From Candidatus Humicultor tengchongensis (GTDB lineage: Bacteria; Sysuimicrobiota; Sysuimicrobiia; Sysuimicrobiales; Humicultoraceae), in NCBI GenBank assembly GCA_031459715.1, contig JAVKIA010000004.1, positions 2,755-66,754 on the forward strand: a stretch of 64,000 nucleotides of DNA. The letters are read 5' to 3'. Positions 801-28,225 of this stretch are shown piece after piece. Made by a program: the position numbers and the translations under genes. The notes under the pieces were generated by a model. The model was given only the letters and a program-made list of their open reading frames with translations, made no database searches and was not told the origin of the DNA. Numbering within the stretch: position 1 is the first letter of the stretch; the number at the start of each line of letters is the position of its first letter.

Positions 801-820
801 CGGACCCACTCCCCTTTCCG

Positions 821-1000
821 CGAAGGTGTGAGGGCCACGGCGGCAGGCAGGTCTTCTGGCTCCGGTTCATCGCGCGGCCGGCCTTCCCGGGCGGCAGGGT
901 GATCGCCCTCGCCCAGTGGCCCCCTGGCCACACTCCCCGTTACAGCGGCGGGACCGCGCCGGATTCCCTGCGACCTCCGCAAGGCCTGCAGGTCACCGGC
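821..1000 (-). ncRNA. Cobalamin (B12) riboswitch in the 5' leader of the TonB-dependent receptor
   Basis: The minus-strand sequence contains GGGAAUCCGGCGCGGUCCCGCCGCUGUAACGGGG, then GGCCACUGGG, CCCGGGAAGGCCGG and GAAGACCUGCC. These match, in the same order, the conserved blocks of the E. coli btuB leader as I recall them (AGGGAAUCCAGUGCG…GCGGUAAGG, GCCAUUC…GGGAAGUC, GAAGACCUGCCGGCC). The element ends about 20 nt before the SD/ATG of the receptor gene. Boundaries are approximate. Confidence 0.75.
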
Positions 1001-1158
1001 TTCCCTCTTCCGACGGAGCGGCGCTCCGTCAACCTGCGCCGTTCACTGGGGTATTCCCGGCCGGGTGGCCGATTCCTCCCGGGGAGTTATCTCAGCGTGG
1101 ATGTGGCGCATCACCGTGCCCGTTGACGACTTGCCCGTAGGGAACCGCCTCGCCTGGG

Positions 1159-2088
1159 TCAGATGCGCGGGCGGAAAGAGACGCGCAGGGGGCCGACGGT
1201 GTATACGTCCTGCGTCACCACCACGTCCACACGAACTGGGCGGCGGGCCTGGGTGATGGCGCTCACCACGCGGCGCAGGGCGTCCAGCTCCGTCTCCACC
1301 AGCGGGGGGTCGGTGATGCGGGCGAACGGCGGCGAGAGGACCTCGCGGCGGGCGGCGGGGGCAGACTGGTCGAGCAGTTCCAGCAACTGTCGCCCCACCT
1401 CGTCACGGGAGCGCCGACCGTCGACCTGACCCGACCCCAGCACCCGGCCCCGCGGGAAGACCAGCCGGTTGTCCACCAGTTGAACCGAGACCTCCAGGGG
1501 CTCGCCCACCAGGGTGTTCTCGTTGGCCACGATGCGCACCACGGTCTCCCCTGGGTGCTGCTTGACCAGCTCCGCCACCTGGTCCCAGGTCAGGGCGGGA
1601 GGAAAGAGGCGCAGCACCGACCCCGTCGTCCCGTCGACGCCGATGCCGCTGGCCAGCGCCTGGTCCACCGCGCGCAGGCGCAGCGTGTCCACCTCTACCG
1701 CCACCTGTACCAGGGGGAGGCGGGCGTCGATGATCCCCCGCAGCACCTCCTGGTTGCGCAGGTAAGCTATGTCTCCCTGCTTCAACTGCTTCAGCCGACT
1801 CTCCGCCCCCCGGATTTCCCCCTGCAGGCTGTCGAGCTGGGCCTGGAGGCTGCGGAACTGGAAGAGCGCCTGGCGGGCGTCCTGCGAGACCAGCAGCACC
1901 GCGGCCACGGTGAGGACGGTGATGAGCATGCCGGTGGCCACAGTGATGATCTGGGCGGTGTGGCGGGGGCGCAATCCGAGGAGGGTGAGCCGGCGCCGCC
2001 CGATGGCCCGGCCGACCAGGTTTCCCACGAAGGCGATCCCCCCGCTAACCAGGATGAGCAGGGGAACCAGGATGATGCCGAACTCCAT
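1159..2088 (-). CDS. DUF3084-like membrane protein (N-terminal TM helices plus coiled-coil); last gene of the long minus-strand operon
   Basis: 309-aa ORF with N-terminal hydrophobic segments (MEFGIILVPLLILVSGGIAFVGNL…, ITVATGMLITVLTVAAVLLV) followed by a coiled-coil stretch (LQAQLDSLQGEIRGAESRLKQLKQ). Its start overlaps the stop of the upstream GT2 gene at 2088. Confidence 0.5.
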   Translation of the reverse strand: MEFGIILVPLLILVSGGIAFVGNLVGRAIGRRRLTLLGLRPRHTAQIITVATGMLITVLTVAAVLLVSQDARQALFQFRSLQAQLDSLQGEIRGAESRLKQLKQGDIAYLRNQEVLRGIIDARLPLVQVAVEVDTLRLRAVDQALASGIGVDGTTGSVLRLFPPALTWDQVAELVKQHPGETVVRIVANENTLVGEPLEVSVQLVDNRLVFPRGRVLGSGQVDGRRSRDEVGRQLLELLDQSAPAARREVLSPPFARITDPPLVETELDALRRVVSAITQARRPVRVDVVVTQDVYTVGPLRVSFRPRI

Positions 2089-2777
2089 CAGCGGGAGACC
2101 AGCAGGCGGCCGAGCAGCCGCAGGTAGGCGATGACCTCTCGCGGTGAGAGTTTGCTGCGCCCGGTGGCGCGGTCGGTGAAGGTGTAGCCCACCTCCACCA
2201 CGGTCAGCCCGGGGTTGCGCGCCAGGATCTCCAGCAGGATCTTGAACCCCAGGCCCCAGTAGTCGCCGGCGAGCACCTCACGGCGTGCGGCGAAGTAGCC
2301 CGAGAGCGGGTCGCGCACAGCCAGGCGCAGGAGGAGGCGTGCTCCGGCCGTCGCCACCATGCTGGCCAGGCGCCGCCAGGCGGGCCACCGCTGGATCCTC
2401 CCGCCCGGCACGTAGCGCGAGGCCACCGCCAGATCCGCGCCTCTCTGCACCGCCGCCACCAGGGCCGGCAGGACCTCCGGAGGGTGGGAGCCGTCGCAGT
2501 CCATCACCGCGACCACCGGCGCGGAGGCGACCGCCGCTCCCGCCAGCACCGCCGAGGCCAGCCCCGCCTTCCCCGGCCGGCGGATCACACGTATGGGCAC
2601 GGGACCATCCGCGGCCAGGGCCGCGGCCACCTCCGCCGTCCCGTCGGGGGAGGCGTCGTCCACGACGATCACCTCCAGGTCCATCACCGGGACCAGCGGA
2701 CGCAGGGCGGCCACCAGCCGGGGCAGGGCCTCTCGCTCGTTGTAGGTGGGCAGGATCAGGGCGGTCCGGGCCGTCAT
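2088..2777 (-). CDS. GT2 polyprenol-phosphate glycosyltransferase (Dpm1/Ppm1/ArnC-like)
   Basis: The true start is the ATG at 2777 (MTARTALILPTYNEREALPRLV…); the 292-aa track ORF carries an N-terminal extension. It has a DxD-type motif (VIVVDDASPDGT), a CDGSHPP motif and …SRYVPGG…, typical of dolichol-phosphate mannose synthase and ArnC. ATGA overlap with the upstream GT39 stop (2774-2777). Confidence 0.8.
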   Translation of the reverse strand: MTARTALILPTYNEREALPRLVAALRPLVPVMDLEVIVVDDASPDGTAEVAAALAADGPVPIRVIRRPGKAGLASAVLAGAAVASAPVVAVMDCDGSHPPEVLPALVAAVQRGADLAVASRYVPGGRIQRWPAWRRLASMVATAGARLLLRLAVRDPLSGYFAARREVLAGDYWGLGFKILLEILARNPGLTVVEVGYTFTDRATGRSKLSPREVIAYLRLLGRLLVSR

Positions 2778-4420
2778 GGCGAGGCGCACGGAAGGGGCTG
2801 CGCCGTCCGCAGCACAAGCAGCTCGCCCCTCGATGCCATCGGTACCAGCTCCCCGGCAAAGGCCCGCCGCGCCCAGCGGTCGTAGTCGCCGCGCTCGAGT
2901 ACCAGGAAGGCGCGTCCCGGGCCGCACAGTGCCCGCCGGGCTTCCGCCTCGCGAGGCGCGACCCACCGGACCGGGTGCCCGCTGTAGAAGACCAGGGAGG
3001 CCCGATCGCTCAGGCCGGCAGCGACGATGCGGTCACCCGGCTGGATCCGGGCCCCCAGTACCAGGGCCAGCGGCTTCATCGGCTTGAGGGTCTCCGCCGC
3101 AGGGAGGACGACGAAGACCAGGACCCCCAGGGTGACCGCCATGGTGGTAACCAGGGCGGCCAGAGCAGGCGCGTGCCTCCGCCAGGCCATCAACCCCGCT
3201 GCCACCGCCACGCCCCCGACCACCGGGAGGGCCAGCAGGCGGAGCTGCAGCCGCAAGGAGGCGTAATGCGCCGGTGATTGCCGCGCGCCCAGCACTGCCA
3301 CAGCCACGACCAGAAACCCGGCAACGGACAGCAGCACCGCGCCGCTCCAGCGCAGGAGGCCATCGGCCCGGGGGTCGCCCTCCCACAGCGCAGCAGCACA
3401 CAGGCGGGCGACGGCGACGGCGGCCACCGGCAGGAGAGGGAGGATGTAGTTAGGCAGCTTCGTACCCGCGGCGGAGTAGAACAGGAGCACAGTCCCCATC
3501 CACAGCAGCAGGAGGAGGCTGCTGTCCTTCTGGCGGGCCCTCCGCCAGTGGTAGACGCAGGCTGAGGGCAGCAGCGCGCTCCAGGGAAAGGCGCCGGCGG
3601 CCAGCACGGGCAGGTAGTAGTACCAAGGCCCGGGCTGGTTCTCCACGACGCCGAAGAAGCGGGTGAACAGGTAATAGCCCACCGCCGTGCGCAGGAACGC
3701 CCGGCCGTGGAGGGCGGTCTCGATGCCGTACCAGGAGAGGCCGATCAGGCCGTAGAGGAGCAGGCCCTCCCAGGGAAGCTCCCGCAGGCGCTCCCGAAGC
3801 CTTCCCCGCACCAGCCACCAGATCCCCAGCGCCATCCCCGGCAGCAGCAGGGCGATCGGACCTTTGGTCAGCGTCCCCAGGCCAGCCCAGACGAACAACC
3901 AGCGGTAGGCGCTCCTCCGATCCGGCCCGCTCCTGGCCTGCTCCGCCGCCACCGCCATCGAGAGTGCCAGAAGCATGAAGACCACAAGCGGGACGTCGAA
4001 GACGGCCATGCGGGACAGCAGGAAGTACTCCAGCATGGTCATCAGGATCAGCCCGGCCAGCAGCCCCGTGCGCAGGTCATAAAACCGGCGGGCAAGCAGC
4101 ACGGTAACGAGCACGCCGGAGGCCCCAAAGAGCGCCGACCAGATCCGCGCGGTGAACTCCGTGAAACCAAACAGAGCACCGGTGGCGGCAACCAGCCACA
4201 TATACAGAGGCGGGTGGACGAACCAGGGTGCGCCGTTGCTGTACAGGGTGAAGGGATCTCCCCGCTGGACGATGGCGCGGGCCACCTCGGTGTATTTCGC
4301 CTCGTCCTGGTCCCACAGGCTCCCCTGCCCCAGGGCAACAGTGAAGAAGGCCAGGGCGGCCGCCGCCAGCAGCAGGGGAGCAGCCCGCTCCGGCAGCCGG
4401 ACGGTCAGCGCACCCGCCAC
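2774..4420 (-). CDS. ArnT/PMT-family (GT39/GT83) polytopic membrane glycosyltransferase using a polyprenol-phosphate-sugar donor
   Basis: The C-terminal ~550 aa of the 780-aa track ORF show multiple TM helices and PMT_2/ArnT-like motifs (…DEAKYTEVARAIVQRGD…, YYYLPVLAAGAFPWS, KLPNYILPL). The N-terminal Pro/Arg/Gly-rich 230 aa is an artefactual extension. My proposed start is the GTG at 4420 (VAGALTVRLPERAAPLLLAAA…), 16 nt inside the LptFG 3' end; the start is uncertain. Confidence 0.7.
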   Translation of the reverse strand: MAGALTVRLPERAAPLLLAAAALAFFTVALGQGSLWDQDEAKYTEVARAIVQRGDPFTLYSNGAPWFVHPPLYMWLVAATGALFGFTEFTARIWSALFGASGVLVTVLLARRFYDLRTGLLAGLILMTMLEYFLLSRMAVFDVPLVVFMLLALSMAVAAEQARSGPDRRSAYRWLFVWAGLGTLTKGPIALLLPGMALGIWWLVRGRLRERLRELPWEGLLLYGLIGLSWYGIETALHGRAFLRTAVGYYLFTRFFGVVENQPGPWYYYLPVLAAGAFPWSALLPSACVYHWRRARQKDSSLLLLLWMGTVLLFYSAAGTKLPNYILPLLPVAAVAVARLCAAALWEGDPRADGLLRWSGAVLLSVAGFLVVAVAVLGARQSPAHYASLRLQLRLLALPVVGGVAVAAGLMAWRRHAPALAALVTTMAVTLGVLVFVVLPAAETLKPMKPLALVLGARIQPGDRIVAAGLSDRASLVFYSGHPVRWVAPREAEARRALCGPGRAFLVLERGDYDRWARRAFAGELVPMASRGELLVLRTAQPLPCASP

Positions 4421-12165: not shown

Positions 12166-13968
12166 CTACTCCTTCGGTCGCAGCAGGAGGCGCACAGGGT
12201 AATAGGAGCCGGCCGCGGGCATGGTAACGACGCCGACCTGCACGCTCTGCCCAGCCGGCACGGTGAGGGTACCAAGGACGCGCTCCTCGCCCGGCCGGTA
12301 GATGGCGATCTCCACCGGGCGGCCATCCACCAGGAAGGTTCCGCGCGCCGGACCGCCGGCGGCGACGGCCACCAGCTCCGCCTGCACCTCGGTCGGCCCG
12401 CCGGCCACTGTGAGCAGCAGGCGGTAGACGACGCCGTAGTCTCCCACCAGCGGCTCGGCCGTGCGCACGTCCTGCAGTCCGGCCGCCGCCCCCAGGTCCA
12501 CCAGGGGCACCGGCCCGCCCAGCTCCACCCGTCGATGGACGGTCACCGTGGGCAAGGGGAAGACGCCCCGGGGATGGGGGTAGGCCACCTGGTACACGGG
12601 CAGGGGGACCGTGCCCTCCAGCAGCCAGGGGAGGCGGACTTGCACCCGGACCTCGAGCTCCTCTCCCCGCAGCAACTGGAGCTGCAGGATACCCGAGACC
12701 AGCTGCCGGGGAGCCATCGTCTGGACGGTGAAGGCATAGGCGGAGTTTGGCGGAACCTCCAGCACGTAGCCCCGGCCGGCAGCCAGGTTCCGCAGGAAGC
12801 GCGCCGCGGCGGCATGCCCCACAAACAGAGAATCGGGGGAGGGACCGGCCAGGCCACTGATCAGCAGCATCTCTGAGGGCTGCGTGCTGCGGTTCCACAG
12901 CATAACGGAGAGGATGCGAGGGCACGCCGGGGTCCCGTTCATGTGGTGGTAGAGCAGGCGGATCGGGTGGCGCGCGTCTACCGCTTCGGAGAAGAGGATC
13001 CCGTCGGCGTCCACGACCTCGGGTCGGTTGCTCACTAACAGCAGTGCCGGATCCGCCACCTGCACCCGTTCCCGCAGCACAACCACGCGCGCCACCCCGT
13101 CCACCGGCAGCGCATATGGGCTGCGTACCACCACCGGGACGGCCAGCTCCACCCGGTCGGCGTCCGCGGCCATCCCCTCCAGGGACGGGAAGGGACCCAC
13201 GGCCAGCGTGGCCCCGGGCCCCCGGCGCACCACCTGGTCGATGCGCCGCCGTACCGCCTCCCTGATCAGTGCCGCATCCGTCAGGTCGCCGCTGACCCGT
13301 ACCGTAACCTCCTCGGGGATGGTTCCGGCAAGCGGTCGCACCACCACCGGCAGCAAGACCCGCCCTCCTCCCACGGCCACCGGCACCACCGTGGAGCCCA
13401 CCGCACGGGCCTCCACCACCACAGTGCCTCCTTCCACCCGCACAGAAGCGATGCGCCGGTCGAAAGGCCCAAGCCTCACCGCTCCCGGGAGGAAGGCCTG
13501 GACGGAGACGCTTGCCCTCTCTCCGGGCGAAAGCCGCAGCAGCGGCGGAAACAGACGGACGGTGTTGCGGGCCAGGGCCTGCTGCAGCCGCGCCGCCCAC
13601 TGCGCGGCCAGCGCCTCCGGGGTGGTCCGGTTGAGCCGCGCCAGCTCTCCGTCGGCAGTGACCAGGTGCCGCTCGTTCACCAGCAGGTCCGCGGCTCCGG
13701 GACGGGGGCGCACGGCGACGGTGTATGGGCCCCCCGCCGCTACCAGCGCGCCGAGTCGGCGCACCACTTCCGCCGCCCGCAGCGCCGCCCCCGGCCCGCG
13801 CACCCGTAGCACCACCACCTCCTGCAGGACGACCGCCACCGCAGGCTCCGCACCGGTCTGCGGGAGCAGACGCACCGGAGCCTCCGCCCTCCCCCCGGCG
13901 GCGAGGAGGGTGAGGCTCACCGTGCAGGCCAGGAGGGTCGTCAGAGGCAGCCGCAGGGACAGCATCAC
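12166..13968 (-). CDS. Hypothetical secreted protein (600 aa) inserted between lpxD and lpxC
   Basis: N-terminal signal peptide ([30 protein letters not shown]), then a long beta-rich, Val/Arg/Pro-rich sequence with no motif I recognise. Its coordinate spans overlap lpxD by 4 nt upstream and leave 16 nt before lpxC downstream, so it appears to sit in the lpx operon. Confidence 0.6.
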
Positions 13969-15005
13969 CGCTTCGAGCGGGAGCGCGCGCGCCGGGTCGC
14001 CAGCTCAGCCAGGCGCCGTTGCAGCGCCTCAAATCCGGCGAAAAGCTCGGGCAGCCGCCGCAGGTATGCCTGCACCCGCAGCTCCTGCCGGTGCGGCCAG
14101 GCCGGGAAGCCGGAGACGACCTGCCGCGCGGGGATGTTCTTGGTCACCCCGGCCTGAGCCAGCACCGTGGCTCCGGCGCCGATGCGGGTGTGGTCCCGCA
14201 CTCCCACCTGCCCGGCCAGGACAGCGCCGTCCTCCACGGTCACGCTGCCGGCCAGGCCCACCTGGCCGGCGATCAGCACCCCGCGGCCGATGCGCACGTT
14301 GTGGGCCACCTGCACCAGGTTGTCGATCTTGGTGCGCGCCCCGATGCGCGTCTCCCCCAGGGTGCCCCGGTCCACCGCGGTGTTGGCTCCGATCTCCACG
14401 TCGTCCTCAATGACCACCCGGCCCAGGTGAGGGATCTTCACCGGCCCGCTCTCGCCCTGCGCATAGCCAAACCCGTCGCTACCCACCACCACCCCCGGGT
14501 GAAGGATGACGCGGTGGCCGAGGACGCAGCCGGCGCGCACGGTCACCTGGGGACCGAGGATACAGTCCTCCCCCACACGCGCGTCGCTCTCCACCACGGT
14601 TCCGGCCAGCAGCGCGCTGCGCGCCCCCACGCGCGCCCGATCGCCAAGCACCACGTGCGGCCCCACGTGCACGCCGTCCCCCAGGACGACATCGGTCCCC
14701 AGCACCGCGGTGGGATGGACTCCCGGAGGATAGGCAGGCGCGGGGGAGAAGAGGGCCAGCAGGCGGGCAAAGGCCAGGCGGGCGTTAGCCGCGCGGATCG
14801 CCGGCTTTCGCCCGGGAGGCAGCTCCGCAGGGAGGAGGACGGCGGCAGCGGCGCTGGCCTCGGCCGCGCGCAGGGCGTCGGCATCAGCGGCGTAGACGAT
14901 GGTCCCCGGGCTCGCCGCCTCGGGCTCCCCCACCCCGCTGATCTCCACGGCGGGGTCGCCGGCCAGAGTACCGCCCAGGTGAGTGGCCAGGTCGCCCAGT
15001 CTCAT
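13965..15005 (-). CDS. lpxD: UDP-3-O-acylglucosamine N-acyltransferase LpxD
   Basis: 346 aa with an N-terminal LpxD domain ([25 protein letters not shown]…) followed by extensive hexapeptide repeats. Confidence 0.85.
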
Positions 15006-15011
15006 CGCCGG

Positions 15012-15449
15012 TCACCGCAGTCTGGCGATCACCTCTTCGGTGATGTCGACGGTACGGCCGGGGAGAGCGTACACCACGGGGCTCTTCACCAGCACGGCGC
15101 CCCGCAGCCCTCGCTCCCGAACTATCTGGCCCACCACGTCGCGGATCTCCTTGTTCAGCCGGTCCTCCAGCTCCCCCTTCAGCTGCGCCAGCTCCCGCAG
15201 GTACTGGTTGCGCCGCGCCTCCAGATCCGCGGGGGAGAGCTGCCCTGCTAGCAGCTGCAGATCCAGGGCCATGGCCTTCTCTCGCTCGTCCAGCTGTCGC
15301 TGGTAGGAGAGCGCCCGAACGCTCTCGTTGAGGATGCGGTTTGTGTCTACGAGGGCGAGCCTGCCCCCGCCGCAGGCAGCCAGCCCCACGGCGGCCGAAA
15401 GCAGGAGCACCATGGCCGTGACCATCGAGGTGCGGCGCCGCGCAGGCAC
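15012..15449 (-). CDS. OmpH/Skp-family periplasmic chaperone, possible lipoprotein
   Basis: 145 aa with a signal peptide and an LAAC lipobox-like motif, then an OmpH-like coiled coil (…NESVRALSYQRQLDEREKAMALDLQLLAGQL…). Confidence 0.65.
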   Translation of the reverse strand: MPARRRTSMVTAMVLLLSAAVGLAACGGGRLALVDTNRILNESVRALSYQRQLDEREKAMALDLQLLAGQLSPADLEARRNQYLRELAQLKGELEDRLNKEIRDVVGQIVRERGLRGAVLVKSPVVYALPGRTVDITEEVIARLR

Positions 15450-15453
15450 GGTC

Positions 15454-16563
15454 CTACCGCTTCAGCCGGGCGAGCACCTCGGTGGTGAGGTCCTCGCCCG
15501 TCAGGTTGCTCAGGTAGCGGGTCAGCACTACATCGAAGCCCCGGGCGGCAGCCAGGGCGGCCACCTCGATCTTCACGTCGGAGAGGATCACGTCCTCCAG
15601 GCGGGAGCGCTGCTCGGTGAGCGCCTGCCGCTCTGCCAGGAGCTGCTGCTCCCGCTCCCGCAGCCCCTCCGCATACCGGTTCTGGGCGGCGGCCAGCTGG
15701 CCTTCGGCCAGGCTGAGCAGGCGGCGACGGAAGGCCTCCAGCTGCGCCTCGAAGGCCCGCTGCCTGGCCGTCATCAGGCGTCGTGTCCCGGCCTCCAGCT
15801 CCTGCCTCTTTGCCTCCACCATCCGGGCGAACTCTCGCTCCGCCTCCCGCTGCGCCCTGGCCAGCCGGCCGTTGGCCTCGGCCACGCGGGCCTTCTCGAA
15901 GTCGCGCAGGATCACCTCCACCAGCTCAGCCCTGGCGCGGACCTTGGCATCCCGCTCTGTGAGCAGCCGGTCCAGCTCTTCCGTGAGCTGGCGCAGCTCC
16001 TCCTCCGAGGCCACGCCGATGACGGCCGCCTTCAGCCGCAGGTTGGCGATGGGGAAGCGGTACTCGTCCAGGACCTCGGCCTCATAGCGGCGCAGCTCGG
16101 CACGCAGCTCCGCCGCCCGGGCCTCCACCGCCTGTTTCAACTCCGCGTGTATCTGCGCGCGCAGCCGCTCCAGCTTCGCCGTCTGCTCCTCTCGCAGGGA
16201 AGCGGCGTAGCGCTCCAGGGCGGCCTCCTGCCGCTGCCGCAGGGAAGCCATCTCCGCCTGGAACTCCGCCTCCAGGCGCTTGGCCTGGGTGCGCAGCTGC
16301 GCCTCCAGGCGGTCCTGCAAAAGCGGCGGAGCCTGCGGCGGGACGGCGAGCTGCGCCTCCAGGTCGGCCAGCTTTGTATTCAGGGCGTCCAGCTCCGGCC
16401 AGCGTGGATGCGCCCGTGCCACCCGGTCCACGTCCACGACGCCCACACGCAGCCCCCCCCTGCCTGTGGGCGTCGGCTGCGGCCGGACCGCCGCGCCCTG
16501 AGGCCGACAGCCAGCCGCCCCCAGGAACGCCAGGAGCAGGAACACGGAGAGGCGCCGGAGCAT
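15454..16563 (-). CDS. Long OmpH/Skp-like coiled-coil periplasmic protein (369 aa)
   Basis: Signal peptide MLRRLSVFLLLAFLGAAGC, an OmpH-type N-terminus (VGVVDVDRVARAHPRWPELDALNTKLADLEAQ…) and about 250 aa of Arg/Glu/Ala/Leu-rich coiled coil, with a second OmpH-like C-terminal segment (…VKIEVAALAAARGFDVVLTRY…). Confidence 0.6.
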   Translation of the reverse strand: MLRRLSVFLLLAFLGAAGCRPQGAAVRPQPTPTGRGGLRVGVVDVDRVARAHPRWPELDALNTKLADLEAQLAVPPQAPPLLQDRLEAQLRTQAKRLEAEFQAEMASLRQRQEAALERYAASLREEQTAKLERLRAQIHAELKQAVEARAAELRAELRRYEAEVLDEYRFPIANLRLKAAVIGVASEEELRQLTEELDRLLTERDAKVRARAELVEVILRDFEKARVAEANGRLARAQREAEREFARMVEAKRQELEAGTRRLMTARQRAFEAQLEAFRRRLLSLAEGQLAAAQNRYAEGLREREQQLLAERQALTEQRSRLEDVILSDVKIEVAALAAARGFDVVLTRYLSNLTGEDLTTEVLARLKR

Positions 16564-16567
16564 GCGG

Positions 16568-17047
16568 CTACTTGCCCGCCACCTTCTGGATCACCTGATC
16601 GGTGAGATCCACCCCGCCGAAGAGCACCACCGAGCGCTCCAGGACAATGGCCACCCCCTGCGCCCTGGCTACCTCCTCGATCGCCGCGCGGATCTCCCGG
16701 TCCAGGCCACCGAACAGCTCCTGGCGCTTGGCCAGCACCTGCTGCTGCAGCTGCCGGTCCAGCAGCTGCCGCTGCTCCGCCGTCATCCCCTTGGATCGCT
16801 CCCGGAACTCCCGCTGCTTGGCCGCAAAGAACTCCTGCAGGGCGCGCTCGGAGGCCGCCCGCCGCGGGTGCGCGTCCAGCGCCCGCTGCATGTCCACGAT
16901 GCCGATGGCGAAGCTCTGGCCGAAGGCGGGCACTCCACCTCGGGACAGCGTCCACACCACGGCCGCGACCAGCAGCAGCACTCCCCCGCCGAGGGCGAAC
17001 CACCAGCTCCGCCGCAGCGTCCGTACGCCATCCAGCCGCGTCCTCAC
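16568..17047 (-). CDS. OmpH/Skp-family periplasmic chaperone
   Basis: 159 aa with an N-terminal TM/signal segment, then IGIVDMQRALDAHPRRAASERALQEF…KRQELFGGLDREIRAAIEEVARAQGVAIVLERS, an OmpH signature. Confidence 0.7.
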   Translation of the reverse strand: MRTRLDGVRTLRRSWWFALGGGVLLLVAAVVWTLSRGGVPAFGQSFAIGIVDMQRALDAHPRRAASERALQEFFAAKQREFRERSKGMTAEQRQLLDRQLQQQVLAKRQELFGGLDREIRAAIEEVARAQGVAIVLERSVVLFGGVDLTDQVIQKVAGK

Positions 17048-17128: not shown

Positions 17129-18430
17129 CTACAGGTTGCTGATCAGGCGCACCCAGTACTCGCCCCCCGACCTGCCGACAATCTCGCCGGAGAGGAATTC
17201 GGTGAAGCGGTATCGCACGCTCCCCTCCACCTGCTGGGCCGGCAGCAGGTATGCCAGGCGCACGCTCACATCCGGCCCCACCCGGTAGGTGACGAACCCG
17301 GTGACCTCCCCGGTGTTCAGCGTATAGGCCGCCCCCAGGTCCCAGACCGCATCCGGCGCGTAGCGCAGCCCCAGGTCGTAGCGGGCGGAGAGGGTGTTGG
17401 GCAGCAGCCCCACCTCGGCGAACGTCTCCAGGCGGCCGAAGAGACGGCCGAGGTGGGCCCGCAGTTCCGGACCCGGGGCCCGCGTGCCCACGTTGAGCTG
17501 CGCCTCGACCCGCCCCAGCCAGAGGAGCGAATCGGCCACCACGGTCACATACGTCGTCTCCCCCACGGAGAGGACGGGCCGGGCCACGACGCGGTACTCG
17601 GCCGCAGGTGGATATGCCCGCAATCGCTCTGCCAAAAGCCGCTCCAGCGTTTCGCGCTGCCCCTGGACGAAGGCGACGGGCAGTCCGCGGATGGGCCCGG
17701 CCATGGACAGGACCGCCGGGGCGTGCTGCTCCAGCAGGAGGAACGGGATGGAGCTGGAGCGGAAGCGCACGCCGATGTCCCGCACCACGCGGCCATCGCG
17801 GGGCAGGAGGTCCACATCCACTCGGGCCACCCTCCCCGCCCGCACCCGCGCCGCTCCGCTGAACCCGGGCAACGCCTCCTCTACGGCGCGGCGGACCTCC
17901 TGGGCGACAAGCGGCCCGGCCCAGTCCAGGGACTGCACCGGCAGGCCCACGAGCATTGCCCGCACAGCCGACGCCACCGCCTGCTGCACCGGCTGCAGGA
18001 CCAGGGGGGCCACGGCGGAATCCACGTCGCTGTGCGGGAGGACCTCGACCTCGTGGACCAGCGGCGGTGCGGGGCGCAGGCGCACCGCCACCACGGCGGT
18101 GGGCCCCACCTCCACGCGGGCCTCGGCGACGGTGTAGCCGCCCACCACCCGGTCCACCACTGTGGTCAGCGTGGCCCGCAGCTGCGTCAGGCCCGGACGG
18201 AGCTGGTCCACCGGGCGGCCGACCAGCAACCGCTGCGCCACCGTCTCCACGGTGCTCTGCAGGCGGGCCTGAACCACGGGGGGGACGCCGCCGTCCACGG
18301 CCAGGTGCACTTCCACCGCCTCGACCACCGCGCCGCTGGCTGCGGCCCACGGGACCAGCAGCAGGAGCAGGGCCAGGCTGCAGACCGCTCGCCCGGCCGC
18401 GGCTAGAACGGGTGTCCCAGGTTGAGCCAC
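17129..18430 (-). CDS. Hypothetical secreted/envelope protein immediately downstream of bamA (start uncertain)
   Basis: This is the frame of the 473-aa track ORF 17129..18550, which gives a coherent protein (signal-like AAAGRAVCSLALLLLLVPWAAASG, then Val/Arg/Ala-rich repeats). The overlapping 527-aa ORF 17088..18671 in another frame is compositional junk. A candidate GTG start at 18430 lies 28 nt inside the bamA 3' end. No family assignment. Confidence 0.45.
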   Translation of the reverse strand: MAQPGTPVLAAAGRAVCSLALLLLLVPWAAASGAVVEAVEVHLAVDGGVPPVVQARLQSTVETVAQRLLVGRPVDQLRPGLTQLRATLTTVVDRVVGGYTVAEARVEVGPTAVVAVRLRPAPPLVHEVEVLPHSDVDSAVAPLVLQPVQQAVASAVRAMLVGLPVQSLDWAGPLVAQEVRRAVEEALPGFSGAARVRAGRVARVDVDLLPRDGRVVRDIGVRFRSSSIPFLLLEQHAPAVLSMAGPIRGLPVAFVQGQRETLERLLAERLRAYPPAAEYRVVARPVLSVGETTYVTVVADSLLWLGRVEAQLNVGTRAPGPELRAHLGRLFGRLETFAEVGLLPNTLSARYDLGLRYAPDAVWDLGAAYTLNTGEVTGFVTYRVGPDVSVRLAYLLPAQQVEGSVRYRFTEFLSGEIVGRSGGEYWVRLISNL

Positions 18431-20331
18431 GTCTGGGTCCCGGCGGGGCCAAAGGCGAAGTCCAGGCGGAGCACGCCCAGGGGAGACCTGAAGGCCACGC
18501 CCACGCCGTAGTTGGCCACGAAACCGGGGGTGCTGAGCGCCGTCCCCCACGCCGCCCCGCCGTCGACGAAAACGATGCCGGTGAAGTCCTTGAAGAAGGG
18601 AGCGATGCCGCCAAGCGGCGCGCGGTACTCGACGTTGGCCAGCGCCATGGCGGTACCGCGGTACTGGCCACCGCTGAACCCGCGCAGCGTGGTGGGGCCG
18701 CCCAGGGCGAACAGCTCCTGCCCGGGGATGGCGCCGCTGCCCAGCCCGGCGCCGACCCGCCCCGCGATCAGGGATTCCCCGCCCAGGGGGATGTACTGGA
18801 CGTACTCGGCAAAATACTTCTGGAAGTTGAACTCACTGCCCAGCGGCGGCAGGGCGAACTCCAGGGAGAGCATCTGCCGGCTGCCTCGGGTGGGGTTGAT
18901 GCGGCTGTCCCGCAGGTCCCTGCTCCCGCTTACCGTCACCGACACTGTCCGCCCCGGGGAGAAGAAGGCGGGCGGAGCGCAGGGGTCGGGCGGGCAGGTC
19001 CCGCTGGGGTCGATGGGCAAGGGGGTGATGGCGGCGCGCTCCGAGCGCAGCCGCAGGCTCACGGTGGTGTGGGCGTCCATCGGCCGCATCACCTCAGCCA
19101 GGCTGCCGACCCGCTCCAGGTCGAAGCGGGCCGTCGTCGCCCCCCCGCTGACCTCAGTCTGCGTGGCCACGGTCTGGTAGAGGTTGAGGTCCAGCGAGGT
19201 CTGGTGTGGGTCCAGGAACGGCTCGCGGAAGCTCAGGACGAAGGTGAACTTGGCGGCCTGGGTTGCCGTGGGGGAGAAACCCCGCTCCGCCCTCAGGGCG
19301 ACGGTCTGCGCCCGTCCCCGCCAGTTCCGCTCCCGGTATGCGATCTGCCCCGTCAATCCTTCGGTGGTACTGTAGCCGGCACCGAAGCTGAGCTCGCCGG
19401 TGCGGGCCTCTTTCACTTCGATCTCGATGACGGCGGCCTCGGGGGTGGACCCTGGCTGGGGGCGGGCCTGTACCGACTCGAAGAGGCCCGTCTCGAAGAG
19501 GCGCTGCAGGTCGGCGTTCATCTGCCGCACGTTGAAGACGTCGCCCCGCTGCAGCCGCACATAGCGCCGGGCCACGGCGGGCCGGGTCTTGGTCAGCCCG
19601 CGGAAGACCACATCCTCCACCCGCCCCTCGGCCAGGCGCACGCGGAGCCGGCCGTCGTCCGCGGGGTCCAGCCCGATATCCACCACGCGGGCCAGCACAT
19701 ACCCCCGTTCTTCGTAGAGCTTCTCCACGGCGCGCACCCCGTCGCGGGCGCGCTTCGTGTTCAGCACCTCCCCCATGGGAATGTCCAGGGCCCGGACGAT
19801 ATCCGCCGTGGCGACCACCGTGTTGCCCTGCACCACCACCGCCACCACCCGCGGGTTCTCCACGACCAGGAAGACCACCCGCAGGCCCGCCGGGTCGGTC
19901 TCCACGCGGACGGAGACGTCGGCGAACCATCCCAGGTCTGCAATAGCCTGAACGTCCCGCCGCAGCTGCTCGGGGGTGGGTACATCGCCCACCTTGATGG
20001 TGACCACCGCCAGGATCTGCGCGGTGGGAATGTACCTGTTGCCCACCACCTCAACGGCCGCCACCCGCGGAGATGGCGTGGGTGAAGGGGCCGGTGTGGG
20101 CGATTGCGTCGGCGCCGGTGTGGGTGCAGGGACGGGAGCCGGTGCAGACTCCGGCGCGGGCGAAGGTGGGGGCACGGGCGACGGTGAGGGTACGGGCGAC
20201 GGTGACGGCGCGGGCGATGGCGCCTGCGCGTGGGAGGTGGAAATGATCCCCGGCGCCGCCAGTAGGAACAGCAGGGCGATCAGGGCACAGGACACATGAA
20301 GCGCGCAGCGCCGGCAGAGGAGGACAGGCAT
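18403..20331 (-). CDS. bamA: Outer-membrane protein assembly factor BamA (Omp85) with a Pro/Ala/Ser-rich linker
   Basis: 642 aa, in order: a signal peptide; a 51-aa low-complexity linker (PSPAPSPSPVPSPSPVPPPSPAPESAPAPVPAPTPAPTQSPTPAPSPTPSP); POTRA-like repeats (…VAAVEVVGNRYIPTAQILAVVTIKVGDV…); a beta-barrel with the Omp85 VRGF-like motif (TLRGFSGGQY); and a C-terminal aromatic residue (…WLNLGHPF). Confidence 0.85.
   Translation of the reverse strand: MPVLLCRRCALHVSCALIALLFLLAAPGIISTSHAQAPSPAPSPSPVPSPSPVPPPSPAPESAPAPVPAPTPAPTQSPTPAPSPTPSPRVAAVEVVGNRYIPTAQILAVVTIKVGDVPTPEQLRRDVQAIADLGWFADVSVRVETDPAGLRVVFLVVENPRVVAVVVQGNTVVATADIVRALDIPMGEVLNTKRARDGVRAVEKLYEERGYVLARVVDIGLDPADDGRLRVRLAEGRVEDVVFRGLTKTRPAVARRYVRLQRGDVFNVRQMNADLQRLFETGLFESVQARPQPGSTPEAAVIEIEVKEARTGELSFGAGYSTTEGLTGQIAYRERNWRGRAQTVALRAERGFSPTATQAAKFTFVLSFREPFLDPHQTSLDLNLYQTVATQTEVSGGATTARFDLERVGSLAEVMRPMDAHTTVSLRLRSERAAITPLPIDPSGTCPPDPCAPPAFFSPGRTVSVTVSGSRDLRDSRINPTRGSRQMLSLEFALPPLGSEFNFQKYFAEYVQYIPLGGESLIAGRVGAGLGSGAIPGQELFALGGPTTLRGFSGGQYRGTAMALANVEYRAPLGGIAPFFKDFTGIVFVDGGAAWGTALSTPGFVANYGVGVAFRSPLGVLRLDFAFGPAGTQTWLNLGHPF
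20095..20250 (-). repeat. Short imperfect tandem DNA repeats encoding the BamA Pro/Ala/Ser-rich linker
   Basis: Repeated units such as ggtgagggtacgggcgacggtgacggcgcgggcgatgg are visible on the plus strand. They lie within bamA codons. Confidence 0.6.
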
Positions 20332-20346
20332 CTCGCTGGATACTGC

Positions 20347-21051
20347 CTACCGGCGCTCCCCGCGAAGCGACCGCTCCGCTGCAATGACCAGATCGATGAG
20401 CTCGGCATCGGAGACCAGGGTGGGAGGCGCCGAGGTCAGGGTGGCCGCAGCGGCGGTCCGGGGTGTCGGCGCCGGCCTGGCAGCAGGCCGCATGGAGGGA
20501 CGCCCAACCCGCTTCACCTGCAGGGGCGACGCGACCCGCGCCTGCGGCACCACGCGCGGAATAGGGGCCGCGACGGCCGGCGGGGCAGCCGTCTCCTCCG
20601 GGGTAAGCACCGCCGGCACCAGCGCCAGCATGATGCCCGGCTGCCTGAACCTGACCACAGCGGGCGGGGGAGCCAGCCCGGGAGCCACCTCTACCCGGGT
20701 AGCCAGCAGCGACCGGCCGCCCAGGAGCAGGGCCAGCAGGGCAGCGGCGCCCAGCACCGTCATCACCGCCGGGGAGCGAGGAAGCACCTCCTCCCGTGCA
20801 GGGAAGGTGCGCTCGCGGGCGTGGTGCACCTCCGCTTCGGCCAGCAGCAAGGTGAGGATGCCGCGGGCGAGCCGCCCGTCCGTCACCTCCTGCCTGGCCC
20901 GGGCCAGCCACCGTTCGGCGAAGCCGATGTGGCGCACCAGGTGCTCCTGCGCAGCGTCTCGCTCACTGGCCTGTGATTGCACAGCGCCTCCCTCCTCAAC
21001 GGTAGCAGGCAGGCGAACCTTCCGATAGTTACTATCCGCAGGCGGCGCCAC
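20347..21051 (-). CDS. Putative membrane-anchored anti-sigma factor / hypothetical protein downstream of the sigma factor
   Basis: 234 aa with a cytoplasmic N-terminus, a single TM (VMTVLGAAALLALLLGG) and a Pro/Ala-rich extracytoplasmic tail. It lies 35 nt downstream of the sigma gene in the same orientation. The anti-sigma function is inferred from context only. Confidence 0.4.
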   Translation of the reverse strand: MAPPADSNYRKVRLPATVEEGGAVQSQASERDAAQEHLVRHIGFAERWLARARQEVTDGRLARGILTLLLAEAEVHHARERTFPAREEVLPRSPAVMTVLGAAALLALLLGGRSLLATRVEVAPGLAPPPAVVRFRQPGIMLALVPAVLTPEETAAPPAVAAPIPRVVPQARVASPLQVKRVGRPSMRPAARPAPTPRTAAAATLTSAPPTLVSDAELIDLVIAAERSLRGERR

Positions 21052-21085: not shown

Positions 21086-21715
21086 TCAGGAGGTCTCCGG
21101 CCGCGGCGCCGAGGGGTTCAGCGCAGCCCTGACCCGGGCGATAGCCTGCTTCTGCAGCCGGTAGAAGTGGGAGAGGCTGATACGCAGCGCACCGGCCACC
21201 TGTCGTGGGTCCTGGCGGGTGAGGAACGCCCGCAGGATGGCCCGCTCCCGCCCCGGGAGGTCGGCCACGACCGCCCGGATCTGCTCGTAGAGGACCCGAT
21301 CCTCCACCCGCAGCAGGGAGAGCTCCGCCTCCAGGTCGCCCAGCGCACCCCCCGGCACCAGTTCCTCCGCCAGGAGCTGGTCCAGGGAAAGCTCGCCGGT
21401 GCGGCGGGCGAAGGCGTTGAGCATGCGGCCGCGAATGCGGTAGGCAGCGAAGGTGCTGAAGCGGACCCCGCGGCCCGGGTCGAAGCGCTCCACCGCCTCG
21501 ATCAGGCCCACTGTCCCCTCCTGAATCGTGTCCATCAGGAGCGCCTGCGGCGGACGCAGCTGCATGGCCAGCTTGAAAACCAGCGGCTGGTAAGCCTCGA
21601 TCAGGCGGAGGCGACTGGCCGCATCGCCGCTGCGGTACTGCGCCCACAGCCCTGCCTCCTCATCGGGGCGGAGCAGGTTGACCTTTTGGAGCTCACGCAG
21701 ATACTCCTCAAACAT
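21086..21715 (-). CDS. Sigma-70-family RNA polymerase sigma factor (group-3 / sporulation- or FliA-like size)
   Basis: 209 aa with region 2 (LIEAYQPLVFKLA…DTIQEGTVGLIEAVERFDPGRGVRFSTFAAYRIRGRMLNAF) and a region 4 HTH (RQVAGALRISLSHFYRLQKQAIARVR). Confidence 0.75.
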   Translation of the reverse strand: MFEEYLRELQKVNLLRPDEEAGLWAQYRSGDAASRLRLIEAYQPLVFKLAMQLRPPQALLMDTIQEGTVGLIEAVERFDPGRGVRFSTFAAYRIRGRMLNAFARRTGELSLDQLLAEELVPGGALGDLEAELSLLRVEDRVLYEQIRAVVADLPGRERAILRAFLTRQDPRQVAGALRISLSHFYRLQKQAIARVRAALNPSAPRPETS

Positions 21716-26392: not shown

Positions 26393-28225
26393 TCAGCGCA
26401 CATGAATGGGGACCCGGAACTCCCCCTGGATCACCCAGTTGGTCCGGATCAACCGGCCGGCGAAGACGTCGAACTTAGTGAACTCCGCTCCGGTCGCCGG
26501 CAGGCCGAAGGGGACCAGGCGGATCAGGATCTGGTTGTTGGTCCCCAGGCTCTCAAAGATCTCCACCGCCTCCTCCAGGGTGTCCCCGGGGAAGGGGGGC
26601 TGCTCGGTGAGCAGGTCTCGTACGATCACGTCTTCCGGGCTGGTTCCAGTCAGGTCGATCCCCGCCGAGCTGACGAGGAGCACCGCCGGGCCCCGCGGGT
26701 AATTCCGCGGCACAGGGACCTCGATGACCCGAGAGACCTGCTGGTCCTGCTGGTAGGGGCGGACGGTGATCCGGACGCGGATGGTCCCTCCCGGGTCGAC
26801 CTCCCGTGTCTCCGCCTCAACGTTGGTGATCTCCGCTGTCTCCCGCTTGCGGGAGAGGGTCATCTCCACCTTCAGGTCAAACGGGTCCAGGTCGGCGAAG
26901 GGATTGAAGAAGAGGAACTGGACTGCCGTGGAGATGTCCAGTACTGAGGCCAGGGCCACGTCCTGCTGGCTGTAGAAGATATTCTCCCGGGAGATGACTC
27001 CGGGCAGCCGCCTGGCGCGCACCGCCATCTTTACCCGGGCCGACCCCTCCCCCTGGACCTGGTCGCGTCCCCGCTCTGCGGCGACGAAGGCCACCAGGGG
27101 CGCGAAGAGGCGCACCAGATCGGCGCGGCGCACCACCTGGGCCGCCCGGCTCACCGTCTTTCCTGAGTCGGCGTCGTTGACGGTGACTCGGACGGTGAAC
27201 ATGCGGGGGAACTTCCCCACCAGGCCGCGGATGCCTGGCCCGCGGTCCTCGTCGATCTGCCCGACCAGCGGTCCCAGGTTGCCCTCCAGGAAGGGACGCT
27301 GCAGCGTCTGCACCACGGTGACGATCTCGGCGGTGGTCAGGCCGTAGGCCACCGACCCCAGGTTCTCCCAGGGGTGACCGCAGATGAGCAGCTTGCTCCC
27401 CACCCGCAGCGTCGTGGTGCAGATGCCGCCGAACTCCACGTCGCCCAGCACCTGGAGGATCCCCACCGGCGAGCCGGCGCGGATCTGCGCCGCCTCCCCG
27501 GCGGCCTGCCCTCCGCCATACTGCACCAGCGGCCGCTGGGCCAGCCGCTCGCCCATCACCTTCTGCAGGAGGGTGAAGGCGCGGGGGGTCAGGCCTCCGG
27601 CCAGGGTCACCGGCTGCGCCGGGAGGAAGGCCAGGGTGCCGGGCAGTGCCGCCGCCTGGCGGGCCTGGGCGGGAGTGCGGGCCACCACCACCCGGTGGAC
27701 CGGCTTCCCGTCCACCACCAGCGGGGTGGTGGGGGAGAAGACGGTGGGCCAGGGAGCGGCTGCAGCCTGCGGCTGCTCCAGCAGCGGCAGCATGTACTCG
27801 ATGGGGGTGCCCAGCCCCAGGTCCTTCCTGGTCTGGAAGAGATAGCTGGCGCTGTGGGCGCCCACCAGCTTCCCGTTGATGTACAAGGGGCTGCCGCTCA
27901 TCCCCGCAGCGGTGCCGCCTGTCTGCTCCATCAGGGGGCCGTAGGTCCGGTAGAGAATCAGGTGCTTCACCGGGATGGCGCCGCCACCTCCCGCCAGCAG
28001 CGCCATTACCTCGAAGTTGAACTCCGCGATCTGCGGGCTCTTCACCGTGGTCCGGCCCACGCCCCGCATCCCCGGCTTGATCTCCGCCACCTTCATGATC
28101 GGGGGCAGCCCCTCCTGGGCGCTGCCCACCGCCGCCGGCGGCAGGAGGACCGCCAGGGCCAACCCGCATACCATGACCGCTCGCCACACACGTGTCACGT
28201 CCCTCTCTCCTCTCTCACTCCCCAC
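26393..28225 (-). CDS. SpoIVB-like peptidase S55 family protein (610 aa), secreted
   Basis: Signal peptide, then the S55/SpoIVB-type serine motif GMSGSPLYINGKLVG, and a long C-terminal extension. It is the gene immediately upstream of tamB. Confidence 0.6.
   Translation of the reverse strand: MGSERGERDVTRVWRAVMVCGLALAVLLPPAAVGSAQEGLPPIMKVAEIKPGMRGVGRTTVKSPQIAEFNFEVMALLAGGGGAIPVKHLILYRTYGPLMEQTGGTAAGMSGSPLYINGKLVGAHSASYLFQTRKDLGLGTPIEYMLPLLEQPQAAAAPWPTVFSPTTPLVVDGKPVHRVVVARTPAQARQAAALPGTLAFLPAQPVTLAGGLTPRAFTLLQKVMGERLAQRPLVQYGGGQAAGEAAQIRAGSPVGILQVLGDVEFGGICTTTLRVGSKLLICGHPWENLGSVAYGLTTAEIVTVVQTLQRPFLEGNLGPLVGQIDEDRGPGIRGLVGKFPRMFTVRVTVNDADSGKTVSRAAQVVRRADLVRLFAPLVAFVAAERGRDQVQGEGSARVKMAVRARRLPGVISRENIFYSQQDVALASVLDISTAVQFLFFNPFADLDPFDLKVEMTLSRKRETAEITNVEAETREVDPGGTIRVRITVRPYQQDQQVSRVIEVPVPRNYPRGPAVLLVSSAGIDLTGTSPEDVIVRDLLTEQPPFPGDTLEEAVEIFESLGTNNQILIRLVPFGLPATGAEFTKFDVFAGRLIRTNWVIQGEFRVPIHVR

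Follow-up and report, generated by a model that had tools for sequence, protein, structure and literature searches.

A run of three tandem genes of the OmpH/Skp family of periplasmic chaperones lies at positions 15012-17047 of a 64,000-nucleotide stretch of DNA from Candidatus Humicultor tengchongensis (assembly GCA_031459715.1, contig JAVKIA010000004.1, positions 2,755 to 66,754 of the forward strand; hereafter the window), whose GC content is 72%. The run had been noticed in an original prediction made from the letters alone, which described three distinct OmpH/Skp paralogs of 159, 369 and 145 amino acids (aa). This description holds, and the genes are laid out as follows.

16568..17047, minus strand: ompH1 (skp paralog 1), 159 aa, GTG start; canonical short Skp
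15454..16563, minus strand: ompH2 (skp paralog 2), 369 aa, ATG start; long Skp with a predicted lipobox
15012..15449, minus strand: ompH3 (skp paralog 3), 145 aa, GTG start; short Skp, predicted lipoprotein

The GTG of ompH1 is preceded by a strong ribosome-binding site (AGGAGGGAGGGAGA). Gaps of 4 nucleotides (nt) separate the ompH1 stop from the ompH2 start and the ompH2 stop from the ompH3 start, and the distance from the ompH3 stop to the start of lpxD is 6 nt. Because the spacing is so tight, the trio is probably translationally coupled within a long operon. A scan for promoters and terminators gave as many matches in shuffled sequence as in the real one and was uninformative.

High-GC DNA yields many long spurious open reading frames (ORFs), as the ORF list of this window illustrates, and the original prediction had named an assembly or fusion artefact of the long form as something that would refute it; a frameshift product or a spurious GC-rich ORF would be variants of the same explanation. 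We rule this out. The GC content at third codon positions is 0.92, 0.91 and 0.86 in ompH1, ompH2 and ompH3, and at second positions it is 0.43-0.45 (0.45 in ompH2), which is a normal coding signature. The identical 369-aa protein was called on nine contigs, among them three separate NCBI metagenome-assembled genome (MAG) assemblies, and in the three loci shown with this identical protein the 159- and 145-aa neighbours were called independently. Its homologs form 35 clusters of 305-401 aa (mostly 363-401 aa) with identities down to 34%, full-length homologs are present in 17 related genomes, and orthologs occur in other phyla. Together, codon composition, the nine contigs, the homolog clusters and the cross-phylum orthologs leave practically no room for an artefact.

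Skp family membership of the three proteins

All three proteins score above the gathering threshold of the Pfam OmpH profile (PF03938; 32.4 bits), the profile check that had been proposed for them: OmpH1 with 58.3 bits (E = 1.3e-15), OmpH3 with 40.5 bits (E = 4e-10) and OmpH2, barely, with 32.5 bits (E = 1.2e-7). The same profile matches 22 of 22 aligned long homologs (best E = 4e-9). Profile-profile comparison with hhalign linked the OmpH1 and OmpH3 families with 98.4% probability over 112 columns, the full mature length, and linked the long family to the two short families with 90.8% and 96% probability via the C-terminal 51-67 columns only. At the other end of the protein, the N-terminal strand motif of OmpH2 (RVGVVDVDRVARAHPRW) resembles that of OmpH1 (IGIVDMQRALDAHPRR).

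Searches against PDB sequences matched OmpH1 to OmpH entries 9nhx (2e-4), 9yjt and 4kqt and to the Skp entries 1u2m and 1sg2. An AlphaFold2 (AF2) model of OmpH3 had a predicted local distance difference test score (pLDDT) of 86.3 and a descending helix of 24 residues, and its top 10 Foldseek matches in the PDB were all Skp/OmpH structures, including the SkpA of the type IX secretion system (T9SS; 8gl8), 1sg2, 1u2m and the Caulobacter protein 4kqt. The AF2 models of OmpH2 and OmpH3 share one order of elements, strand-helix-helix (hairpin)-helix-strand-strand-helix. This is the Skp fold, in which an N-terminal beta-strand is followed by an inserted antiparallel helical hairpin and by C-terminal strands and a helix that complete the body. 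NCBIfam searches with the trio returned sub-threshold noise only (TrbI_Ftype, por_somb, LptM-like signal regions). Sequence profiles and predicted structures thus identify all three proteins as true Skp-family paralogs.

The profile of the long family also weakly matched PDB sequences of apolipoproteins A-I and E (E = 0.018-0.75), and one of the 22 long-family members reaches the Pfam Apolipoprotein model (E = 0.0067). We read these matches as shared periodicity and composition and not as homology; they probably arise because the helices have an amphipathic periodicity of about 11/3 residues and a similar composition.

Architecture of the long paralog

The AF2 model of OmpH2, built on an alignment of 22 sequences, had a mean pLDDT of 85.5. 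It consists of a strand at residues 40-44, helices at 55-73 and 83-181, a turn at 182-186, a continuous helix at 187-341, C-terminal strands at 344-348 and 357-358 and a helix at 360-368. The three helices of the hairpin arms amount to about 273 helical residues, in agreement with the roughly 250 aa of coiled coil that had been read from the sequence. By this model, OmpH2 can be described as a Skp with a helical insert enlarged from about 70-90 to about 290 residues. Its predicted parts map to the DNA as follows.

16507..16563, minus strand: lipoprotein signal peptide and lipobox, residues 1-19, MLRRLSVFLLLAFLGAAG-C19
16450..16506, minus strand: Pro-rich tether from the Cys to the first beta-strand, residues 20-38, predicted disordered
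16021..16401, minus strand: descending arm, residues 55-181, with a PPxxPP break at 74-82
15997..16065, minus strand: hairpin tip, residues 167-189, conserved motif EYRFPIANLRLKAAVIGVASEEE
15541..16005, minus strand: ascending arm, residues 187-341, a continuous helix in the AF2 model
15457..15540, minus strand: C-terminal Skp body module, residues 342-369

The C-terminal module is the most conserved block of the protein, and through it OmpH2 aligns with the OmpH1 and OmpH3 families and with OmpH in Pfam and the PDB; the C-terminus itself (...LKR) lies within the Skp body. The tether is variable and indel-prone in the alignment, and pLDDT falls below 50 at residues 14-36. A self-BLAST of the 369-aa protein found no internal repeats and no sign of a recent tandem duplication of Skp units. 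Mature OmpH2 has a basic isoelectric point (pI) of 9.0, as does OmpH1 (9.8). The hydrophobic periodicity of the OmpH2 helices at residues 83-341 is about 3.7 residues, close to 11/3, and not the heptad value of 3.5. This may mean that the amphipathic helices are straight and have an unbroken hydrophobic face.

Within the phylum, arm length is remarkably constant. Residues 40-365 align gap-free across the 17 related genomes, down to about 36% identity, with few exceptions. Two genomes have a 4-aa deletion at residue 290, opposite the PPxxPP break, where a loop can absorb the loss, and in one genome 2 aa are inserted at residue 353. Within the helices, insertions occur in a single homolog, P0035, which gains 8 aa after residue 96 and another 8 aa after residue 270, one in each arm and at distances of 87.5 and 86.5 residues to the predicted tip. 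Across 51 long-family proteins we measured the arms from the first strand to the tip motif and from the tip motif to the C-terminal D-h-T motif. The two lengths covary (r = 0.975, slope 1.16, difference 40.8 +/- 5.2 aa) over ranges of 103-180 aa for the descending arm and 136-226 aa for the other, in at least eight distinct length classes; the sequences are phylogenetically non-independent, and one regular-expression outlier, where the tip pattern had matched a second time by chance, was left out. The gap-free alignment across the related genomes, the covariation in the wider family and the model together support the prediction that the helical region is a matched antiparallel hairpin. With straight helices and a rise of 1.5 A per residue, arms of about 130 residues would extend about 18-20 nm, and the descending arms of the whole family (103-180 residues) roughly 15-27 nm.

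Conservation is highest at the two ends of this structure, in the body (residues 41-60 and 301-350) and at the tip (161-190, motif EYRFPIANLRLK), and lower along the shafts; it peaks at 3.3-3.7 bits at the tip as against 2.3-3.0 bits in the shafts. Tip residues Y168, P171, L175, R176 and L177 are invariant. The OmpH2 tip motif has the form Y-x3-h-x-N-L-R-L-K and is placed next to the hairpin turn. An exhaustive profile search with the long family against 1.84 billion representative proteins returned 383 clusters at E <= 1e-3 and 164 at E <= 1e-10, and the best 150 matches include 133 full-length representatives of at least 280 aa (median 356 aa, maximum 644 aa). About 60 of these 133 carry the motif as Y-x3-h-x-N-L-x-L-K-L, Negativicutes and Halanaerobiales included.

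Predicted export signals and membrane anchors

An n-region and an h-region are present in all three proteins, but the N-termini differ. A lipobox has the general form [LVI][ASTVI][GAS]C and closes an n/h-type signal peptide; we scored it with a PROSITE PS51257-type pattern. OmpH2 matches this pattern with LGAAG-C19, and in the 22 homologs Cys19 is invariant and G18 nearly so. The signals of the other two proteins are given here.

15372..15449, minus strand: signal and lipobox of OmpH3, residues 1-26, ...AVGLAA-C26, matching the PROSITE-type pattern
16919..17047, minus strand: N-terminal export signal of OmpH1, residues 1-43, ending in a conserved A-x-G|QSF site

Cys26 of OmpH3 is invariant in 19 and in 23 aligned orthologs. 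Both OmpH2 and OmpH3 are thus predicted lipoproteins; the LAAC lipobox first reported for the 145-aa protein stands, but it is not the only one in the trio. The first beta-strand of OmpH3 begins only about 5 residues past the Cys predicted to be lipid-modified, which would place its trimer body flat on the membrane.

OmpH1 has a basic n-region and a rather long, Trp-flanked hydrophobic stretch of about 20 aa. Its cleavage-like motif is kept in 18 aligned orthologs and would leave a mature form of about 116 aa; orthologs of other lineages have classic signal peptides. OmpH1 is probably the soluble copy of the trio, although both a cleaved signal and a signal anchor fit its sequence.

In the long family, a lipobox is present in 67 of the 133 representatives and another N-terminal hydrophobic segment in 55. 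Many of the non-lipobox segments are 19-24 aa long with aromatic or basic flanks, resemble transmembrane (TM) helices and look uncleaved (e.g. L028, P0163, P0164 and P0167); such an anchor leaves the inner membrane as the only possible site. Negativicutes, which have the same trio, lack LolA and LolB (PMC5007114; PMC13018214). In Veillonella parvula, the middle paralog Vpar_0529 has a predicted TM helix and a predicted inner-membrane location and is listed as 'uncharacterised', and Vpar_0530 is a predicted lipoprotein (PMC5491611 supplement). Because of the TM-helix-like anchors of many long homologs and the missing LolA/LolB in Negativicutes, OmpH2 and OmpH3 would most likely be held at the outer face of the inner membrane. 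No Lgt, LspA, Lnt or Lol genes were found among the window ORFs scanned.

Occurrence and ancestry of the trio

All related loci found in a genome-collection scan belong to CSP1-3/Candidatus Sysuimicrobiota or to allied uncultured lineages (ANGP1, 'Armatimonadetes bacterium CSP1-3'), and the host is not a diderm Firmicute. The short/long/short trio stands between a SonA-like gene (described below) and lpxD in every related locus that covers the region, and the gene order is the same in 20 Sysuimicrobiota and related loci.

The trio is not restricted to this group, nor is its long member. Named long members are a 312-aa protein of Propionispora (Negativicutes) and a 399-aa protein of Selenihalanaerobacter (Halanaerobiales), annotated OmpH/Skp; others come from Eremiobacterota and Xenobia (470-505 aa), an Armatimonadetes MAG (346 aa) and a Bacillota MAG. 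The comparison with diderm Firmicutes that had been proposed returned the same trio with varying lengths, 157/312/139 aa in Propionispora (L024) and 174/399/140 aa in Selenihalanaerobacter (L026); the trio measures 286/505/144 aa in an Eremiobacterota MAG (L027) and 155/405/141 aa in a low-GC lineage (L028). In these four loci the context is bamA, a 434-437-aa no-match gene (where present), short/long/short OmpH and lpxD. The three proteins of the window match the Propionispora trio one to one (E = 7e-26, 7e-28 and 4e-14 for paralogs 1, 2 and 3), the best match of OmpH1 being the 157-aa Skp and that of OmpH3 the 139-aa lipobox Skp. TamB length and long-Skp length, compared in three genomes, gave no usable trend.

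The Eremiobacterota locus (L027, positions 495-3344 of MAG contig JBEHWN010000353.1) has an enlarged paralog 1 of 286 aa with a lipobox, and its 505-aa middle and 144-aa third paralogs have plain signal peptides. Anchor and length have there been reshuffled among paralogs.

'Three copies of Skp' have been described in the outer membrane (OM) cluster of Negativicutes and Halanaerobiales (Antunes et al. 2016, PMC5007114). The trio of V. parvula is Vpar_0528-0530, followed by lpxD, and mass spectrometry picked up all three of its Skp proteins, at intensities of about 6.8e8, 6.7e7 and 1.2e9 (PMC5491611 supplement). From gene order and one-to-one sequence matches, we regard the trio as the ancestral orthologous 'three Skp' block of the OM cluster of diderm Terrabacteria. 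The arrangement is known; its member in the uncultured phylum Candidatus Sysuimicrobiota is new. A long form is the norm for the middle paralog and is unusual only relative to the Skp of Escherichia coli. The literature searched contained no long, lipoprotein or periplasm-spanning Skp, and nothing on the long hairpin, the tip motif or the anchoring.

The surrounding outer-membrane gene cluster

By Pfam annotation, the cluster runs from tamB through a sigma-70-family gene, a gene for a 234-aa membrane protein, bamA, a 433-473-aa gene and the three skp genes to lpxD, a 600-aa gene, lpxC, fabZ, lpxI, lpxA and lpxB, followed by lptB and lptF/G. The region is an OM and lipopolysaccharide (LPS) biogenesis supercluster, and the linkage of bamA, skp and lpxD on one strand is the classical genomic context of Skp/OmpH. 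The immediate neighbours are listed here.

18403..20331, minus strand: bamA, Omp85 barrel and POTRA domains (Pfam Omp85 130.5 bits, POTRA 107 bits)
17129..18550, minus strand: SonA-like gene between bamA and ompH1 (433 aa, 17129-18430, according to other gene callers)
13965..15005, minus strand: lpxD, downstream of the trio (Pfam LpxD and Hexapep)
12166..13968, minus strand: 600-aa gene between lpxD and lpxC, signal-peptide-like N-terminus

The trio had been described as following bamA. It does lie downstream on the same strand, but not directly, as the SonA-like gene intervenes. This gene (433-473 aa) had no match in Pfam, NCBIfam or PDB-sequence searches, and it is present in every related locus covering its position. 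It aligns to the 434-aa Propionispora protein at the same position with 29% identity over 433 aa (E = 5e-47). At this position Acetonema longum has sonA; its product, reported in 2026, combines three POTRA domains with a 10-stranded barrel (PMC13018214). Given the Propionispora match and the position, the gene at 17129-18550 is probably a SonA ortholog outside the Firmicutes.

Between tamB and bamA lie a sigma-70-family gene with a region 2 match only (21086-21715, minus strand) and the gene for the 234-aa protein (20347-21051, minus strand), which has a central hydrophobic segment and resembles an anti-sigma factor. The pair is kept in nearly all related loci covering the region and in Propionispora, where the sigma factor is 44% identical and the partner matches with E = 6e-7. 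The Propionispora partner stands at the 'SonB' position, described as that of a predicted OM lipoprotein, yet it is without any cysteine. Immediately upstream of tamB, a 610-aa protein (26393-28225, minus strand) contains a weak SpoIVB-type S55 peptidase domain (32.5 bits); this sporulation-associated protease family is here found beside the OM cluster of a non-Firmicute genome. The 600-aa gene had no match in Pfam, NCBIfam or PDB sequences. Among related loci it is present only in L001, L002, L003, L012 and L016; in the remaining loci covering the position, those of the ANGP1 type included, lpxC follows lpxD directly.

Positions 1-30000 of the window thus encode TamB, BamA, LpxA/B/C/D/I, FabZ, LptB and LptF/G, a full LPS and OM biogenesis set, from which we predict that Candidatus Sysuimicrobiota is diderm and has LPS. 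The CSP1-3/Sysuimicrobiota genome papers searched do not contain the terms 'outer membrane', 'diderm' or 'lipopolysaccharide', nor anything on the cell envelope.

A possible tethered route across the periplasm

The original prediction suggested subfunctionalised chaperones, and this is plausible because export and anchor signals differ among the paralogs. We lean, with modest confidence, towards a division into one soluble and two anchored Skp paralogs in which the long one bridges the periplasm toward BamA and the SonA-like protein. Each paralog would form a Skp-like trimer. Paralog 1 would be a diffusible holdase, OmpH3 a cup fixed at the membrane surface, and the OmpH2 trimer a tethered cage or rail leading from the Sec exit across the periplasm, its conserved tips meeting the OM side at the BamA POTRA domains, a SonA-like protein or the inner leaflet. 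Unfolded OM proteins could then pass from Sec toward BamA or the SonA-like protein along the tethered bridge, with no free shuttle. Two precedents make such a bridge plausible: in V. parvula, Mla has been proposed to act as a trans-envelope bridge instead of a shuttle (PMC10665443), and the Skp paralogs of Bacteroidota have non-redundant roles, one of them being built into the T9SS translocon as a fixed structural component (PMC10994853). A more general proposal is tentative and on balance doubtful, namely that the middle paralog is an uncharacterised pan-Terrabacteria Skp subfamily, anchored in the inner membrane by lipid or a TM helix, whose arms span the periplasm and whose tip docks to BamA or SonA, so that a tethered Sec-to-BAM (beta-barrel assembly machinery) bridge would also be a ruler linking periplasm width to OM-protein biogenesis.

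Several points weigh against the bridge. OmpH2 clears the Pfam cut-off by 0.1 bit only, its model rests on a shallow alignment of 22 sequences with a predicted template modelling score (pTM) of 0.54, and the Foldseek search of this model against the PDB gave generic coiled coils only. The models are monomers and do not tell a cage from a closed bundle. We infer both which membrane carries the anchors and, from length and anchoring only, that the long Skp bridges the periplasm. The anchor pattern differs in Eremiobacterota, with the lipobox on paralog 1 and a plain signal on the long one. In A. longum, co-immunoprecipitation and cross-linking recovered no BamA partners (PMC13018214), which speaks against a stable complex between tip and BamA.

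The anchors could instead face the other way. If OmpH2 and OmpH3 were sorted to the OM, they could be BAM-proximal accessory lipoproteins that replace BamB-E or SurA, which are missing in Terrabacteria, with arms directed toward the inner membrane to collect substrates. The probable translational coupling of the genes in the bamA operon fits this, as do a Terrabacteria BamA without known lipoprotein partners (PMC13067283), the abundance in the OM fraction of Vpar_0530, a predicted lipoprotein flagged 'potential OM' (PMC5491611 supplement), and the presence of LolA in Halanaerobiales that have the same trio. Skp is, however, known to contaminate OM fractions (PMC5491611), Negativicutes have no LolA/B, Vpar_0529 is a predicted inner-membrane protein, many long homologs have a TM-helix-like anchor that allows the inner membrane only, and the pull-downs in A. 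longum speak against BamA partners here too. We give OM sorting a limited chance of being right. The speculation that the long coiled coil is a structural spacer, here an anchored trimeric rod that sets or stabilises the distance between the membranes with chaperone activity lost or secondary, draws on the same anchor and on the arms: their length is invariant over 326 positions in 17 genomes that diverge to about 36% identity, indels are compensated, the shafts are less conserved than the ends, and between phyla the protein ranges from 312 to 505 aa, as would a ruler fitted to differing periplasm widths. Terrabacteria also lack Braun's lipoprotein (PMC5007114). Length constancy would be needed anyway to keep the hairpin arms in register, however, and the entire Skp body with its conserved residues is retained. 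The tip has no beta-barrel or second anchor, Pfam found no SLH, OmpA-like or other peptidoglycan-binding domain, and OmpM already tethers the OM in Terrabacteria. Spacers of the Lpp or SLH type combine a parallel heptad coiled coil with a peptidoglycan-attachment module; OmpH2 has neither, being a predicted antiparallel hairpin with a periodicity of 3.7 instead of 3.5, and its mature pI of 9.0 is basic like that of the canonical-type OmpH1. The strict conservation of length agrees with the spacer speculation, but a pure structural spacer is less likely than the bridge, in our view quite unlikely.

A heterotrimer, in which all three paralogs share one beta-barrel body with one long arm and two short ones, is a very improbable arrangement. 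In its favour, gaps of 4 nt between the genes point to coupled translation, all three proteins share the N- and C-terminal motifs that form the body, and the trio is always inherited together. Yet the matched Skp/OmpH entries 1sg2, 1u2m, 9nhx and 9yjt each contain a single sequence in 3, 6 or 12 chains, E. coli Skp is described as a homotrimer, and none of the matched entries is a heterotrimeric Skp. The abundances of the V. parvula trio differ about 18-fold, and the anchors or tethers of the three proteins differ as well (none, 19 aa and 4 aa).

Within the window itself, the analysis mainly clarifies what is there: the trio is the Skp block to be expected in an ancestral OM cluster, and Sysuimicrobiota is shown to have the full gene set expected of a diderm LPS cell (TamB, BamA, SonA-like, three Skp, Lpx and Lpt). 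The wider value lies in the long paralog, which extends from Negativicutes to Eremiobacterota with a predicted anchor, matched arms and a conserved tip and which the searched literature lists as 'Skp' or 'uncharacterised'. It is a concrete candidate for how unfolded OM proteins cross the periplasm of Terrabacteria and is genetically testable through Vpar_0529. If the more general, doubtful proposal were correct, OM-protein delivery in diderm Terrabacteria would use a tethered Sec-to-BAM bridge and not a diffusing chaperone shuttle.

Comparison with known systems

Braun's lipoprotein Lpp and Thermotoga Omp-alpha are periplasmic coiled-coil spacers; as proposed for OmpH2, each is a trimeric or coiled-coil rod that is anchored in a membrane and about as long as the periplasm is wide. 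In Lpp, three parallel helices form a coiled coil that is cross-linked to peptidoglycan via its C-terminal Lys, and Omp-alpha has an SLH domain. OmpH2 differs from both in that its hairpin is antiparallel and built on a Skp body, no SLH match was found by Pfam, and its terminal Lys-Arg is at the body and not at the far end. The concept of an envelope-biogenesis factor that is fixed in the inner membrane and does not diffuse is shared by PpiD and YfgM of E. coli, inner-membrane-anchored periplasmic chaperones at Sec, whose folds are unrelated to that of OmpH2. The jellyfish-like trimeric holdase Skp of E. coli (1SG2, 1U2M) shares with the trio the Pfam family, the fold topology, the basic pI and the bamA-skp-lpxD linkage. 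Its tentacles measure about 6.5 nm. The single E. coli copy is soluble and 141 residues long when mature, whereas two of the three copies here are predicted lipoproteins; OmpH2 in addition has arms of about three times the length, a tether of 19 aa and a tip with a conserved motif.

Bacteroidota have tandem, non-redundant Skp paralogs, SkpA and an essential second homolog in the T9SS Extended Translocon (8GL8), one of which is a fixed structural element of a larger envelope machine and not a free chaperone; they number two and not three, and the part of the source available describes no long form or lipid anchor (PMC10994853). Their partner SprA of the T9SS is confined to Bacteroidota. Among the Foldseek matches of the OmpH3 model, SkpA of 8gl8 ranks first. 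The layout proposed for OmpH2, a factor fixed in the inner membrane that extends over the periplasm instead of diffusing, has also been put forward for MlaD of V. parvula ('bridges instead of boats', PMC10665443), a trans-envelope protein with an unrelated fold.

The known arrangement of the same kind is the three-Skp block of diderm Firmicutes. The window differs from it in the host phylum, Candidatus Sysuimicrobiota, in a middle paralog of 369 aa as against 312 aa in Propionispora and 399 aa in Selenihalanaerobacter, and in the extra 600-aa gene between lpxD and lpxC in part of the Sysuimicrobiota. The two agree in gene order (tamB, (sigma factor), bamA, (sonA-like), skp, long skp, skp, lpxD), in protein sizes of about 155, 310-400 and about 140 aa, and in the predicted signals, with a signal peptide on the first paralog, a lipobox or TM anchor on the second and a lipobox on the third.

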